From Squalus acanthias (Eukaryota), in the NCBI GenBank assembly GCA_030390025.1, contig CM059429.1:156116001-156180000 (forward strand): DNA of 64,000 nt, given 5' to 3'. The notes below the pieces were generated by a model, which saw only the letters and a program-made list of their open reading frames with translations, was not told the DNA's origin and did no database searches. Shown one piece after another: positions 30,151 to 44,200 of this stretch. Made by a program: the position numbers and the translations under genes. Position 1 is the stretch's first letter. Each line of letters opens with the position of its first letter.

Positions 30151-30767
30151 ATACTGAATCAGCAACCCAGAGGTCCTGAATGCAAATCTGACACTGAATT
30201 CAATAAATCTGGTAATTTGTGGGCTGGTGCCAGAAAAAATAACCATGAAAGCTGCTGGACTGTCGTAGAAACTCAACTGGTTCTCTAATGTAATGCAGGG
30301 AAGGTAAGCTGGCATCCTACCTGGTCTGACCTGTGTGTGACTCCAGTCCCATACTACAAGGCTGACTCGTAATGCCTTATTACCCAAGCTAGCCATTCAG
30401 TTGTAAGAATAATTGCTACGATGAAGGCCCACCGCCACCTTCTCAGGGCAACTAGGTATGGGCAATAAATGCATCCTTGCCAACCCGAGAACAAATTTAA
30501 AAATAGACTGCCCTCCAAACAAATGCACTCTTCTGCAGGTGTCACTAGATAGTGATCATGAGCAGGAACTCGGGCTGATGTTTATTTCCCTCCTTGTACT
30601 CAGGGAACACTGAATCAAACTACTGCTTCCACTGTTGCTCCAGGTAAGATCAGTAAACACAGTGTAGGGTGGAGATTGAAACTGGGATGTAATATTTACC
30701 CACTGAGCTTTCGGCACAGCCTGAAAATTGCGTGTGCCATCCGGTCCACAAGATAACTCGATCTTAC

Positions 30768-30889
30768 CTCAGTGACCAGCTGCAGATCACTCACATAGTT
30801 TTCTTCTGTCACGATGAGCTCGTGGATATAGCCCTGTCGCTTTCGCTCAGAAGGAGTTAGCATGTCCAATAAATGTAAGTCAGCACACC
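30768..30889 (-). CDS. ITSN1: ITSN1-L exon, start of DH (RhoGEF) domain
   Basis: T|GG gives W; [41 protein letters not shown]; 122 nt. Confidence 0.96.
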
Positions 30890-31719
30890 CTACACAGAAG
30901 AGGGGAAGACTAAATAGTATACATCACGTAGCATTCTAACATACATGGTTTCATACGCAGCTGAGGCACTTGAACTGCCATCCAATAGTAATTAATAACA
31001 TAGCCAATCCATCAGTCTGGATAAAAAGTTAGGCAGAGTACTATACAGATAACATTTTACAGGATAGAATCAGAGAACACAAACTGTGACATCCGAGTAA
31101 ATTGGGTCGATGTCTTCATTTTAATTTTTTAAATATTGTTTCAGACCAATTCACAATACGTGGCGAGCTGGTTGTGACAATGTTCCCGCTAATTTTTTTG
31201 GGTGCGCGGTCCCTTTAACTGGCATGTGCGGCTCATTCACATTTCCGCGCATGCACAGTCTTTCCATTCAAAACACCATTGACCGGCCTGCGGGGGAACA
31301 TCCAGACCGCTAAACTTGAAAAATATATTTTGGCATTGATTTCAGTGTCAGTTATGTTGTACTGCATTAAAGTGATTGCCAAGCAGAAATACAAATCTAA
31401 AGCCTTTCATCTTTTCCCCCTACCCAAGGTGCTCATTCTTTCAATAAGGTTCTTTTGCACAGATTTTCAGCAAAACTAGCATAGGAAAAGTTTTTAGGTG
31501 CCAGGCTCTTTATCAGAGCTGCGAACATCAAGAAAATATTAGGAGTGAGATTGACTCAGAATTCCAACCCATTTAAACATAAGGAGATGGATTTATTTTA
31601 AGCGTGATACTCTTAAAAGTCCATTTCTAATTGTCTAAACACAGCCAGCGTATCTCCAGAAATGGTTTCTCTTTCAGCCCTGGCCAATCACCACTGAGGT
31701 TCACCTTCCTCTTGCTTCC

Positions 31720-36919: not shown

Positions 36920-38040
36920 GTTATTGTGCAAAGTTAAAGCACATGGGATTGGGGGTAAGGTACTGACTTGGATAGAGAACTGGTTGGCAGACAGGAAGCA
37001 AAGAGTTGGAACAAATGGGTCTTTTTCCAAGTGGCAGGCAGTGACTAGTGGGGGGCCCCAGCTATTCACAATATCTATATATCTATATATATGATCTAGA
37101 CGAGGGAACTAGATATATCTCCAAGTTTGCAGACGGCACAAAGCTGGGTGGACGTTTGTGCTGTGAGGAGGATGCAGAGAAACTCCAGTATGATTTGGAC
37201 AGGTTGGGTGATTGGGCAGGTGCATGGCAGATGCAGTATAATGTGGATAAATGCGAGGTTATCCACTTTGGTGGCAAAAACAGGAAGACAGATTATCTGA
37301 ACGGCAATAGATTGGGAAAAGGGGAAGTGCAACGAGACCTAGGTGTCCTTGTGCACCAGTCGCTGAAGGTAAGCATGCAGGTGCAGCAGGCGGTTAAGAA
37401 GGCAAATGGTATGTTGGCCTTCATAGCGAGAGGATTTGAGTACAGGAGCAAGGATGTCTTGCTGCAGTTGTACAGGACCTTGGTGAGACCACACCTTGAG
37501 TATTGTGTGCAGTTTTGGTCGCCTTATCTGAGGAAGGATGTTCTTGCCATGGAGGGAGTGCAGCGAAGATTCACCAGACTGATACCTGGGATGGCAGGAA
37601 TGACGTATGAAGAGAGATTGGGTCGATTAAGCTTATATTCGCTAGAGTTTAGAAGAATGAGAGGGGATCTCATTGAAACTTATAAAATTCTAACAGGACT
37701 GGACAGACTAGATGCAGGAAGGATGTTCCCGATGGCGGGGAAGTCCAGAACCAGGGGTCACAGTCTAAGGATAAGGGGTAAGCCATTTAGGACTGAGATG
37801 AGGAGGAATTTCTTCACCCAGAGAGTGGTGAACCTGTGTAATTCTCTACCACAGAAGGCAGTTGAGGCCAATTCATTAAATATATTCAAGAAGGAGTTAG
37901 ATATACTTCTTAAGGCTAAAGGGATATGGGGAGAAAGCAGGGACAGGGTACTGAATTTGGATGATCAGCCATGATCTCATTAAATGGCGGAACAGGCTCA
38001 AGGGGCCGAATGGCCTACTCCTATCTTCTATGTTTCTATT
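36920..38040 (+). mobile_element. CR1 LINE (HER1-like) 3' part of ORF2 plus 3'UTR
   Basis: 308-aa ORF 37048-37974 with SKFADGTKLG, DKCEVIHFG, LVRPHLEYCVQFWSP and RRMRGDLIETYK; catalytic FADD altered. Confidence 0.93.
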
Positions 38041-39549
38041 CCAGTCTACACAATTTCAAATCTGTCTCATATAGTTACTTATAGGTGAAGTTATTAAGTC
38101 CCATGTATATATTCAATTCAAAGAATGTCCAATCTTGCCCAATGTTTTAATAGTGAACCATCTTAACTTTTATTTATTGCAGTGTCTAGCAACAATAACT
38201 TGCATTTATAGAGAAACTATAAAAATGACGCAATAAAAATCTTTGCTTTTGGCTACTTAACATACTTGTCTGGTAAAAAAAGTGAGTAATTTATATGTTG
38301 AGGGAAATTAATTACAAGTCAGTATCCTTGAAGTATTTTACAGAACCACAATTACTCTGTCTTTGGTTTTAAATCTGCCCCTGTTGAGTTTTTGTATTCT
38401 CAAATAACCAACAACAAAATGCAGCTTAAAACTCAAAAGGAGAAATGGAAAAGAAAGAGGCTGTGATTGACAAAACTATGTGCTGCTCCAATGACACATA
38501 TCGCAAAATAGCCAAGCACAATGGATTGCACCCGTTTCAATGAAATGTCAGACTGCAGGAACTAAAAGGAGGTCTTTAGGTTACTCTAAGTATAAAATCC
38601 TTAAAGATTAAGGGCTTTTGGACACATCATGTAAGAGATGTACTTTACACTGAAAATAATTCGACCCCCCCACCCCCCTTTCCTGATGTGTGTGTGGGGA
38701 TAACAAGGTTAGCCCAAGCCACCTTTGCACAACTTCCACTGGCTGGTTATAGTGTGTCATCACCACTGGCAGGTTGCACTCCATCTCAAATTACATCATG
38801 TGCATACAGGGTGGGTTTAAATCAGGTGAAAGCTGGGTAGTTCCCCATAAAAATAGTAGGCAAACCACCTGCGGTGTCTCACGTGTAACACACCCCAACT
38901 ATATTGACTTTCAGCTCTCATCCTTTCCTTGAAGCCATTAATCAAAAAAAAATTGTTGTAGCCATTTGAAAATCTCCAAAATCAGTGAAAGAATTTGGAC
39001 CACTAGATCCTTAAATTTGAGAAACTCTCTCAGGTGATCAAGATCCTACTGAAAACTTTAATCTTGATTTAACGAGTATGAAATGTGATTTATTCCATAT
39101 TTTACTCTGAAATGCAGATGGTACAATTACAGTTTTAGAAACTAATTAAAAAGCTCCTGTACTGTACTCCAAAATATCAATGTGAATAATGAGCAATTAT
39201 AACACTTAGCGTGCAGAGATTCCTGCAGTTAGCAAAAGGTCATTCACTCAATTATATGAAACTGGGAGGGGCAAGCTGTTTCAGTATTCAATTTCCTTTA
39301 CAGCCCAGAATAATTTTTTCTCTGCATAAAAAGAATCTGCATGTCTGAAAATTTGAATGAGTTGAAGAGTAAAATATTCAATTTTAAATAAAAGTTTGAT
39401 ATGCATGGGTTTTCACAGTACTAAAGGGATTAGTGAATAGTCATGAAAATTATTTTGATGGTTCAAGAACTATAATCACACAGTACCGACATTCTTTATG
39501 TACGATAAAGAAACAAGGACACACATTACAGTCAATTTTAAAATGGAGC

Positions 39550-40850
39550 TTTTAATTTTTTACCTGTACATGTAGTTCAAGGATGCATGTGACAACCAGT
39601 TCTTAACACTGGTCATACCATATATATTTATATATACTTTATATTTATAACAATGAAATACTTCCACAAACAAATGAAACCAAATTTGAGCCTCAGTTGT
39701 TTTGTGCACTACCCAAATGCCTCATGAGAAGCAAACACTACTTATACTGCTTGTATTAGGAAACAGTGATGTTGCAGAGAATAAAAAAACCTGAAACGAT
39801 ATTACTATTTTTAAACTGAACATAAGCATTCTAGCATGAATTTTACCTCATACTTACAGCACCTGATGGTGACATGTAACTGAGCCACAGAATTTATCGA
39901 ATTTTGTCTCTCATTTCTAAGTAAAAGCTCCATTGTTTGTTAATTTGTATAAATACAATGCACTAAAAGATTACAATTTGTAAACACTGTAGTTAATTGT
40001 AGGATAGTATTTCTATACATTCTTTCTTGTCAAGAATTGTTTGTTCAAATGACCATTTTCCACAGTAATGAAAATGCAGAAGCAAACTTGTGAAGGGGGT
40101 ACGACACAAAATACATTTGTTTTTGTTGCACTAAAAGGTGTTTTATGCCATTTCTTATAAATCATAGTACAGTAGGTGCGACATTTTATTTCAAACTAGC
40201 TCAGCAGAGCCATAATATACTGAGGAACATTCATTGAGAATTATCACAAAAACACTTTGAATTAAGCGCATCAATAACCCCTTCAAAAAGCACCTCTACC
40301 TTTCACAGAATGGCTATGACTTGCATCATTTTTAATACTGGACATAGTGACATGTTTGTTCAATATAAACGGACGCTGAATTAAAAAAGCTTTTGAAGGA
40401 GGACATACTGAAGAGTTAATACCACATGCAGCATTCCTTGATAGTGGGTCGTTTTGCAAGACAAAAGCATGCAGGCATTTAAAATTAATATTTAAAAATG
40501 GAAACATTGGTTTGGCTTAATTTTATAGGGTTGATTTTAAAAACTAGTACAGTGGTGTTTTCCACAGGTGCAGAAATAAACTGGGGGCAGCAAAAGCCAC
40601 AAAAGGACCCACTATCCTTTTTAAATTTTTTTTAATAGACTTAAACTAAAAATATCTAGGACTATACGCAACTAAAGTAAAATGAGGTAAAACTGCTCTG
40701 CAGTGTTCTTCTAGTCAGTAGGCAGTTGATGATCATGCAGAAGTCACATGATCAAGGCTGCATCTCCCATCATCCCTCTGGCAGTGATATGGGATAGTGG
40801 GTCTCTTTGAGGACTTTCAAGCCTGAGTGGGGGATGGGCAACATATGATC
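39550..40850 (-). other. ITSN1: ITSN1 short-isoform (ITSN1-S) alternative terminal exon and 3'UTR; 3' end uncertain
   Basis: ctttttctag acceptor at 40851 followed by GA, which joins the terminal T of the SH3E exon to make TGA. Repeat-free sequence follows; candidate polyA hexamers AATAAA 40185-40190 and ATTAAA 39551-39556. Fits the known ITSN1-S/-L architecture. Confidence 0.85.
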
Positions 40851-41107
40851 CTAGAAAAAGGAGGAAAACACAACACATAAGCAAACAAAACATGTGCAAA
40901 TTCAAGCTAGGAAATGAGTCGGGCATGTACAGCGTGATGCAAATGATAAAAACGTACATGCTATAAAAAGGGATGGGAACTGAAAGGAATTGCTTTACAG
41001 AAGGTCTTCAAAGAGACTATTAAATGCAGCAGCATAGCAGAACCACAGCAATGCTGCATGTTTTCATACTGACTAGACAATAAACAAACTTTTTATAAGC
41101 CACTTAC

Positions 41108-41299
41108 ATTGCTGGCTTGGGTCCATATCTGTTGTTAGCTTCACGTAGTTGGATGGGAAGAGACCCATGACTCCATTGAGCTCCCCTTTCCACCAATCTG
41201 GATCGTCCTTGTTAAGAACACCAATGATCTGTCCTTTGGCAAACGCAAGTTCATCATCATTCTGTGCAATGTAGTCATACATACCAATCACCTGGAACA
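41108..41299 (-). CDS. ITSN1: ITSN1 exon, SH3E domain
   Basis: [19 protein letters not shown]...[17 protein letters not shown]; 192 nt; ends T|gtaagt. Confidence 0.97.
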
Positions 41300-44200
41300 C
41301 TGTCAAAATAGAAACAGAAATTGGTACCGCAATAGATGTTTCATAATTCCAACACAAACTCTCTGAAGATAGTAGCTTAGCATTGAGAGAAATACATTTC
41401 CTTCTAGGTTTGGTGGCAAGGCAACCTTGGTGAAGCAGGCAATTGAGATTTTTGGGGGTGACTACATGGACTGCAGTGTTTTCTGGTCCTATGCTTTGCT
41501 ATGTTTCTAACCTAAGAGCTGGAATATAGTTACTAAGCTTGTGACCTCAAACTGAAATTTGATAATTAAACAACATTATTTTGCTTTGACTAAACTAGCC
41601 TGATTGAAAGTTGCAATTATAACTAAAACATCACTTGGAAGCAATATAGGAGGCTAGCCATGTTCTCTTTTAAAAAAAAACTTAAGTTTAACAAGCCAGT
41701 TGTATGATACATAGAAAGTAGTTGCATTATCAATTCCTGTGCATTGGTACAATTCAACAGACAGATCACTGCATGAATACCAAATGTGCACAAGTGGCAG
41801 TTTAGGAATAAATATTTTATTTCTGGGGGGGAAAAAGTGTAAAATGTTTCACCTCTCCTGCAGTTCCAACATCCACATGATCTCTGGCTGGAAATACCAG
41901 ATTGTTGAATCCACCATACTTATTCCAGAAGGTAATTTTTTGGCTGACCTCCCAGAAGACCCGCTTTTAGTGACGGGACAATTATCTCTGCTGTAGAGTT
42001 TCACCTCCATCCCCAGAATAAAGTGGATGCTTGCAAAGCTTGCACTCTCTGGGACATGTGTACACAAATGTCTGTCTAGAGTGGATCTAGACTGCGCTCT
42101 TGGTTCGAAGTCTATAGTTGCATTGCAACAGCAGAGCCGTGTAAATGCATCAAAAAAAAACCCTGAAGGTACTGGAGTAAAATTCTCAATCTACACAAAA
42201 GGAAAGCCTCCTCCACACACACTTCGGTTTTGGGCCAAAATGATAAATGTCTCAAATAACATTTTTGAAACCAAACAATCTGATCGCTTTTGCAATGGAA
42301 AATAATTTACTGCAAACACACAACAGATTGGAGATGGGGAGTGGAATCCACTGCTGATGACATTCCTTTCCTTTGGGGATTTATTTCTTTACAAGCCTAC
42401 AGACTTCGAGGGAATATGTGAGAAATTACATAAAGGCAGCTAAAGGTCAAAGGATGAAGCAACTTACACAACAAACCAGGATGAGATCACTAAATTCTTA
42501 GTAGAGTAGGGAAAAAAATGATGAAGACCAGAGCAAGTATTTCTGAGTTCAAGTAAATGTACAGAAGATAGAGCACTTTAAGGATCCCAATACAACTCAA
42601 ATTAAAAACTATTGGCATCATAGGGGTATCACGGTATAAGTCATCATCAAACACCCATTACTAACGACTGTGTTTCACCTTCAAACTGTAAAAGTTGTAT
42701 CGGCTGCCTGTCAGCCAACCGTAGTAGCATTTGCATGGATGAAGTAACAATGATATCTGCTTGCACCTTTACTGAAAAGTATGTCATTAAAAATAGAATC
42801 AATGTGGATCGCAACAGTTTCTTTACTCTCTTTCCCCCCCACCCCCAAGGCAGTGACTTCCACTCGGGTACATTCACAGTACCAGTGGCTCCCCAACGTC
42901 TTGCCAAAGCAACCATTCTTAGCGTATGAGCTGAGGCAGTCAACAGGCTACTTGACTATGGAGGGAAGCTGCAATCTAAGCTAATTGCCTCCTTGGAATT
43001 ACACCCAACAGGAGGAGCAGCTGAATAACAAAGAATAGGAGCTCTGGCTTATAGTCCTCTTTCTTCCCAGAAAAATTCAGGTCAAATGAATGCCCTCACA
43101 GCATTCCTGGCTAAGGTCAGAAAACTCTGCACAGACCAGGCATTGAACCTGGGATCTTCTTAGAGTGTCCAGCTCGTTACCACATCATGTAATGCATTCA
43201 CCCAAAGCAGCAGCCTTCTTCCTAATTGTTTATTTGAAACAAGGTAATGATGGGGACAGTTTTAAGGTCACAACAGACACTGGACAGTTCACTGAAAAAT
43301 ATAGTTCCTTGACGAGCATCAGAAGCTGATGGCAAAGCTACTCCAAATATCTCTATTTGTTGCGGTCAACCAAAAGTAAGAGTGAAATGTTGCATGGACT
43401 TGCCCTGTGGACTGCAATCGCCTTTTCTGGCTTGCAGCTTCTTGCATCACTAGGTATCTGCATGCACTGTGGGAGAAATTGAGCCAGTGTGTGTGGCTGG
43501 CAATTTATGCAAATTAGTCACGAAATACAAAATTTCACAAGAACAGGAAAGTCTTGTGTTTTTATGTCAAGAAAGATAGTTAGGGCTTAATGTGTGGAGT
43601 GCCAAGGTTGAAGCAATGATTAAGTGGGTTTGGGGTTTTAAAAGCCTGTAGAGGAACAGCAGACCAACGGAAAATCAGGAATTCAATGGTTTTGGGATCC
43701 TTGCAAAGAATGAATTGGAGTAGGCTGTACAATTCCTTTCTTCTCTAATTTGAAATACAACTGAAAGCCCAAATACAGATAGAGGTGTGTCTGTATAAAA
43801 ATGATTAAAGGATACTCTTTCCAAAATGTACACCAAACCAGTCATAACTCTGAGCTAACTTCTTGAAATCTTCCTGGTACTGAAATTCTACAGTATAAAA
43901 ACCACAGAAAGCTTCAGTAGTCTAGGCATGAACTTAAATTGGCATTGAAACGTTTTACTACTCAGATGTTCTCAAAGACTGAATATTGGGGATGCACTGC
44001 ATCTTAATGTGGCATTCACTGGTGACAGAAACATTACTACTGCTCTCCTGCCAGAGGTTTTTTTGGGTGCGGAAAAAGAGGGGGGGGAAAAAAGTATAAT
44101 TCAATTAATTAAAAAAAAAATCAGCCCAACATTCATGCTACCCTGACAAAGCTGCCATGTTAGGTGTTGGGGGGGCTGAGCAGACATACTTGTTTTGCCA

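Follow-up and report, generated by a model that had tools for sequence, protein, structure and literature searches.

Competing complementary arms at the short-form terminal exons of intersectin 1 and intersectin 2

In the bacterial trp attenuator, four arms in series pair as 1:2, 2:3 or 3:4, with two outer helices set against the middle one and the outcome decided during transcription. In the docking-site/selector family of RNA switches, one arm is complementary to several others, each selector sits by its own exon of a duplicated cluster, and the arms are intronic and are spliced out. The arms R1, R3 and R4 of ATE1, as described in the parts of PMC7797038 cited here, are conserved among vertebrates; the outer arms compete for the middle one, an additional long-range pair is present, the result depends on co-transcriptional folding, and the arms are intronic and serve two mutually exclusive internal exons. 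In Drosophila, PGRP-LC, CG42235 and Pip have competing pairings near alternative 3' cassettes that follow one upstream donor, each selector lying upstream of its own cassette and activating it by proximity, with pairings that are lineage-specific (sections of PMC6191721). The terminal-exon loop-out of FGFR1OP2 uses conserved long-range complementary regions that enclose a regulated splice site, and the catalogue to which it belongs lists single pairs (PMC8052449). The passage on the duplex between intron and 3' UTR of the short SON isoform in PMC11838218 describes a single edited duplex and no competing trio.

We analysed a window of 64 kb (the whole stretch of DNA shown above) whose minus strand carries intersectin 1 (ITSN1). 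The terminal exon of its short form contains three complementary arms: a hub P, an arm M that can pair with P, and an arm D that is the second partner of M. The intron upstream contains an arm B that can also pair with P, an arm A whose partner A' adjoins D, and an arm C that is a local rival for A. The earlier note on this DNA had proposed a docking-site/selector type of switch for the three exonic arms, and its pairing logic stands: M is one arm complementary to several. The family assignment does not, because two defining features are missing. There is no duplicated exon cluster with a selector by each exon, since P and D share one exon instead of each having its own; and the arms are not spliced out, since the short form carries P, M and D in its terminal exon and keeps all three in its mRNA (they are intronic for the long form only, while A, B and C are always intronic). 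The alternative exon of the long form is an unrelated DH exon 10 kb away, and the core sequence occurs nowhere else in the window.

The likeness to ATE1 extends to all four points given above, from vertebrate conservation to dependence on co-transcriptional folding, the last being predicted for intersectin. The intersectin arms P, M and D differ in lying within one terminal exon and being kept in the mRNA; moreover, B is added as a fourth arm to form a chain, the core is common to paralogues, and the arms are known from sequence and folding, whereas those of ATE1 have been proven by mutagenesis. Compared with the PGRP-LC type, D has no exon of its own, the last two exons are unrelated, and an intron-exon helix would loop the acceptor out. 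B:P and A:A' resemble the FGFR1OP2 helices, in contrast to whose single pairs the intersectin arms compete. The likeness to the trp attenuator, in arms, order and timing, is a logical analogy, with no leader peptide, terminator or homology. No description of these arms was found in the literature searched, though catalogues and supplements (PCCR, RIC-seq, dsRNAscan) may list some of them unnamed. Neither ITSN1 nor ITSN2 is named in the main text and examined supplements of PMC8052449, whose full Zenodo catalogue may list arms; both are absent from the text and examined supplements of PMC11838218, and ITSN is not mentioned in the main text of PMC10573301.

The choice between short and long forms sets whether intersectin has its Cdc42 exchange-factor module. 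The parts of PMC3645719 consulted give ITSN1-L as brain-specific and ITSN2-L as ubiquitous, and those of PMC9519902 report that the S/L ratio tracks glioma grade. Competing pairings in both paralogues, in a 3' UTR and without duplicated exons, would, if true, broaden a mechanism described chiefly for clusters of mutually exclusive exons. Compact conserved arms around an acceptor also make control in cis directly testable in an existing minigene and offer targets for splice-switching oligonucleotides.

Three arms in the ITSN1 short-form exon

The exon at 41299-41108 encodes an SH3 domain (SH3E) that scores best against Intersectin-1 (3jv3), which identifies the gene as ITSN1. Joining 41108 to 40850 forms the stop codon TGA of the short form across the junction (T, then GA), and splicing to the long-form acceptor at 30890/30889 runs on into the DH region, so P, M and D lie no further than 411 nt into the ITSN1-short terminal exon. 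The layout is as follows.

41108..41299, minus strand: last shared coding exon of ITSN1 (SH3E), equivalent to human exon 29; its donor serves short and long forms
40851..41107, minus strand: 257-nt intron that leads from the shared exon to the terminal exon of the short form
40848..40880, minus strand: short-form 3' splice site (40851/40850), pyrimidine tract and candidate branch point A at 40878
39089..40336, minus strand: remainder of the 3' UTR of the short form; poly(A) signal candidates at 40336, 40190, 39556 and 39094
30750..30889, minus strand: first long-form exon, where the DH region starts, with the competing acceptor some 10 kb downstream; the lower boundary is an approximation

Eight runs guessed to be RNA (2 studies, two organisms) contain a fraction of 0.68-0.72 of the words in 40300-41300. 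The spliced short form would be expected to give 0.70, and the near agreement is only a hint. A donor-like site at 39857, inside the putative short terminal exon, could turn this exon into a stop-containing internal cassette, the way in which PMC9519902 treats human exon 30. The distal UTR also contains two inverted pairs, 39934-39919 with 39557-39542 (16 nt, 94%) and 39382-39366 with 39108-39092 (17 nt, 88%).

Three elements had been placed on the mRNA (minus) strand, and we find them there, P at 40809-40792, M at 40617-40600 and D at 40456-40440. With their extensions the arms are:

40792..40818, minus strand: arm P, extended; hub, at exon +33 to +59, pairing with B or M
40592..40617, minus strand: arm M, extended, +234 to +259, pairing with P (24 pairs) or D (19 pairs)
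40440..40461, minus strand: arm D, +390 to +411, second partner of M

P begins 42 nt past the acceptor (33 nt for the extended arm), in agreement with the ~40 nt given for the proximal copy before. One set of M bases serves both P:M and M:D, so the two pairings exclude each other and M can pair with either outer copy but not with both, as the earlier note had it. Its helix length of 16-17 bp has to be revised: P:M has 24 pairs over 27 columns, and M:D has 19. The single mismatch that it gave for both helices is present, but it is not the same mismatch, being A.C in P:M and C.C in M:D.

How often would such a trio arise by itself? The 11-nt core has exactly 3 copies in the window, two in one orientation and one in the opposite. 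An ordered 11-mer trio (X, anti-X, X) was found in 0/3000 dinucleotide shuffles of the first 500 nt and in 7/3000 of the first 1800 nt. Real 1800-nt tiles contained one in 4 of 63 cases, two of these being the two intersectin loci, and real 500-nt tiles in 0 of 227, which is a weak control in that tile borders split even a true trio. A search with 40400-41300 against the 3.7-Gb genome gave 2 places only; this bears out the claim that the region has no transposon sequence, and an origin from a transposon or repeat element was rejected on this ground. Rfam gave 0 matches at E<=1 in 38000-42000. The P 17-mer, too, occurs at 2 places in the genome, one in ITSN1 and one in ITSN2, both in short terminal exons.

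The same trio in ITSN2

The only other genomic match to 40400-41300 is a locus (L002) whose flanking exons correspond to SH3C-E, DH and PH exon by exon and whose SH3E scores best against Intersectin 2, which makes it ITSN2. Its short-form UTR contains P, M and D, ordered and oriented as they are in ITSN1. Measured from the acceptor, the three arms start at +38, +522 and +672 in ITSN2 and at +33, +234 and +390 in ITSN1, so that the offset of P is nearly equal and the M-D spacing similar, while the P-M spacings are about 280 nt apart. When the intron-plus-UTR regions of the two genes (2.3 kb and 6.7 kb) were compared by BLAST, two stretches were significant: the acceptor with the first ~125 nt of the exon (E 1e-15) and, as the sole one beyond that point, M by itself (35 nt, 89% identical, E 2e-6). 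ITSN2 D matches ITSN1 D at 15/16 nt, with an E of 0.54 by itself, and six further rows all have E of 0.15 or worse. Twenty-two nucleotides of P are identical between the genes, and M followed by D appeared in 0/20000 shuffles of the ITSN2 UTR. Because the same trio is found in both genes, and M is the sole significant UTR match beyond ~125 nt, the P/M/D trio likely predates the ITSN1/ITSN2 duplication and forms the ancestral core. We take this duplication to date from the early vertebrate genome duplications.

The pairs are kept along with the arms. ITSN2 has 24 pairs in P:M and 20 in M:D, against 24 and 19 in ITSN1, and the duplex energies are -34.4 (ITSN1) and -39.5 kcal/mol (ITSN2) for P:M and -27.7 and -31.4 kcal/mol for M:D. 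Beyond the core, the differences between paralogues include one-sided changes that leave a pair intact, 2 in P:M and 3 in M:D. The 4 columns of P:M that differ include 1 broken and 1 repaired pair, and M:D has 1 break and 2 repairs. Two-sided changes from one pair to another numbered 0 between the two full sequences, ITSN1 and ITSN2, so strict covariation is not shown. Conservation of P, in addition, need not stem from pairing, because the exon start is highly conserved as a whole (31/32 before P and 72/76 after it).

The ITSN2 UTR has further arms of its own. A second X/anti-X/X trio lies on the minus strand at L002 1598-1586 / 1440-1423 / 1157-1140, where one middle arm has two rival partners, a distal copy and the 5' flank of P; this trio could stand in for the intronic B of ITSN1. 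A third (L002 1371-1345, 1277-1253 and 251-225) consists of two 27-nt copies, identical at 100% of positions and 1120 nt apart, that have an imperfect complement in between; a 20-nt direct repeat flanks the distal one, and the trio may be a recent duplication. Lower in the UTR, 33-nt inverted arms at L002 880-848 and 150-118 lie 697 nt apart (-27.5 kcal/mol).

Intronic arms around the short-form acceptor

Four further arms, which the earlier note did not have, involve the 257-nt intron of ITSN1.

41047..41061, minus strand: arm A, intronic, 46 nt past the donor; pairs with A' (14/15) or with C as a local hairpin
41024..41034, minus strand: arm C, intronic, local partner of A and rival of A:A'
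41000..41017, minus strand: arm B, intronic; complementary to extended P over the 18 nt at its 5' end, with 16 Watson-Crick pairs and 2 A.C
40424..40438, minus strand: arm A', adjoining the 3' side of D; partner of intronic A, and would stack beside M:D

The B:P helix encloses the branch point, the pyrimidine tract and the short-form acceptor in a loop of 181 nt. Both B:P and A:A' enclose the 40851/40850 acceptor, which is the arms-around-splice-site arrangement of the PCCR type, and they do so with unrelated sequences (A/A' on the one hand, B/P on the other) nested in a consistent geometry. As predicted helices, A and B give the trio a concrete link to the 3' splice site. The ITSN2 intron (3693 nt) contains no analogue of A or B that we could find and no exact match to P, its partners for P being weak and irregular, so on present evidence the link to the acceptor is not ancestral.

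A metagenome scan for further vertebrate copies returned 4 loci, 1 of them a true ITSN1 (L016); the 3 others were unrelated 19-mer matches and were dropped. Scans of prokaryote genomes and viruses gave 0. L016 is the ITSN1 locus of another, distant vertebrate, 79% identical overall, on a contig that stops 78 nt past the motif and before M, and it therefore covers A, B and P, with M and D missing. A is identical at 15/15 and B at 18/18 positions (33/33 together), and P at 27/27, whereas the rest of the intron is identical at 135/188 positions with long indels. B:P and A:C refold in L016, the A:C hairpin with a different loop. Two more intronic islands are invariant or nearly so in L016: 40913-40895, which can pair weakly across the acceptor in the L016 fold, and 40980-40969, which resembles the exon-start stretch that pairs with 40776-40765. 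A local hairpin of 10 bp after P, at 40754-40730, is present in all folds shown, that of L016 included.

Human primers in supplements 1 and 2 of PMC9519902 allow a comparison by eye for parts of the arms, with P, B and the 5' half of M, where the putative G-U-compatible change given for human M in the earlier note would fall, outside their cover. One matches the last 13 nt of A (18/20 overall); one matches 14 nt of the 3' half of M and continues with C in place of the U that faces a G of P in the window, so that the last pair of P:M, a terminal G-U, becomes G-C; and one matches the D/A' boundary (the 3' end of D and the 5' part of A') at 18/18. Joint conservation of the three elements, the main check set in the earlier note, is borne out more strongly than claimed there, by the trio in ITSN2 and by the parts of M and D that match human primers. 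Judged by sequence, the conserved feature is real and richer than first described, and at least some of these helices are very probably real and selected.

Could the arms be conserved for a reason other than pairing in RNA? Coding constraint through stop-codon readthrough, or chance, has a negligible share in our assessment. The window does have a 34-codon open frame past the stop, spanning P; the same frame is shifted in L016 and in ITSN2, which excludes readthrough coding, and chance is opposed by both shuffling series with 0 hits (0/3000 for 500 nt, 0/20000 for the ITSN2 UTR). An orientation-independent motif bound as DNA or by protein, for example a homotypic transcription-factor cluster, could occur three times and leave complementarity as a by-product. 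Such a motif would fit the strand comparison, which gives no preference for the RNA strand: the four trio helices hold 9 G-U against 3 A.C, their energies lie within 2 kcal/mol on either strand, and for B:P the antisense strand is favoured by 9.8 kcal/mol. It does not fit the presence of the P core at just those 2 places in 3.7 Gb, the fixed order and orientation, or a nested geometry around the acceptor built from the unrelated A/A' and B/P, and we regard it as very improbable.

Predicted folds and a possible gate on the acceptor

In equilibrium folding of the ITSN1 pre-mRNA, B:P and M:D dominate (0.97-1.00, with M:D at 0.98-1.00), P:M has a probability of 0.00-0.01, A:A' of 0.01 at most and A:C of 0.94-0.98. 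Forcing P:M costs +9.7 kcal/mol in the full pre-mRNA and +3.9 before D is made, but +3.0 in the spliced mRNA and +0.7 in spliced RNA without D; forcing A:A' costs +4.1 kcal/mol and leaves the fold fully nested. ITSN2, by comparison, favours P:M, and M:D costs +3.5 to +5.8 kcal/mol. When a growing transcript is folded at equilibrium, P:M is never populated and the pyrimidine tract is 53-58% unpaired at each length tried; folding at 15 C instead of 37 C brought no change. P:M occupies all the M bases that D would use, and B leaves the last 9 nt of P (40800-40792) free as a candidate toehold for M, which together suggest a kinetic choice between early invasion by M and the pair of helices B:P and M:D.

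The reading that we prefer, at a probability of roughly 45%, is an RNA switch that gates the short-form acceptor, in which B:P with M:D, possibly joined by A:A', would lead to skipping and P:M to inclusion. It starts from arms whose complementarity, exclusivity, conservation and position are observed, and models the chain B-P-M-D plus A/A' as two exclusive folds. In the first, the predicted default of the pre-mRNA, B:P would loop 181 nt around the acceptor while M:D withdraws the competitor for P; A:A' could enclose the whole, and skipping and the long form would be favoured. In the second, M would invade P through the 9-nt tail before D is transcribed ~130 nt later, B would be released, and the acceptor, no longer looped, would favour the short form. 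The balance might be tipped by the rate of transcription or by a protein on the pyrimidine-rich arm B; blocking of B by PTBP1, the candidate, would fit this composition. Human exon 30 is regulated and PTBP1 promotes its inclusion, according to the sections of PMC9519902 cited; the mapped human PTBP1 site, elsewhere in the exon, has no match within 3 mismatches in the 64-kb window. From arms and folds together, it is likely that the chain can fold in two exclusive ways; that cells would switch between P:M and M:D, that M would invade kinetically, which way the S/L ratio would then move and what would trigger the change are our inferences.

With the intron gone, the predicted energies of the two states differ by no more than about 3 kcal/mol, and the alternative between P:M and M:D could instead act on the finished short mRNA, through 3'-end choice, export, localisation, stability or escape from NMD. 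In a variant of this explanation the duplexes would serve dsRNA-binding proteins or ADAR, and P freed from B could report that splicing is done. The ancestral core is fully exonic and persists in the mRNA; the states are closest after splicing (+3.0; +0.7 before D); the distance of P from the stop codon, located at the junction, is fixed as well; and the ITSN2 UTR has more long-range arms. ADAR prefers A.C mismatches, and P:M (40818-40792 with 40617-40592) retains one per paralogue, at differing positions. We nevertheless find a role confined to the mature mRNA, in either variant, somewhat unlikely, because it would leave the invariant intronic A and B unexplained and because the literature search turned up no report of editing or of Staufen. 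The B:P helix (41017-41000 with 40818-40801) retains two A.C mismatches, invariant in L016, and retained A.C mismatches of both helices are possible ADAR editing sites on sequence grounds.

Selected helices might also exist without any switch, with one fold per gene (B:P and M:D in ITSN1, P:M in ITSN2) or a fixed order of pairing during transcription, and the third arm a relic or an aid to folding. That one state dominates each ensemble, by M:D at 0.98-1.00 in ITSN1 and by the +3.5 to +5.8 kcal/mol cost of M:D in ITSN2, is what this explanation predicts. It is harder to reconcile with an 'unused' arm that both genes have kept since their duplication, with changes that keep pairs in both helices, or with the 3' tail of M, which pairs with the P flank only and yet is conserved in ITSN1, ITSN2 and the human primer; we judge it distinctly unlikely.

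Returning to the gate on the short-form acceptor, a wider form of it would be an attenuator-like relay, older than the ITSN1/ITSN2 duplication, that decides the last exon and senses splicing. The hub P would pass from B to M by toehold displacement before D appears, elongation rate and PTBP1 would govern the choice of long or short form in neurons, and the structure that remains on the short mRNA would record the path taken and direct its later fate. Taken as a whole, we consider this relay unlikely. One further complement of P lies in the coding SH3E exon, at 41176-41158 (-21.9 kcal/mol); in the spliced mRNA this pairing has a probability of 0.03, and the stretch is not the same in L016.
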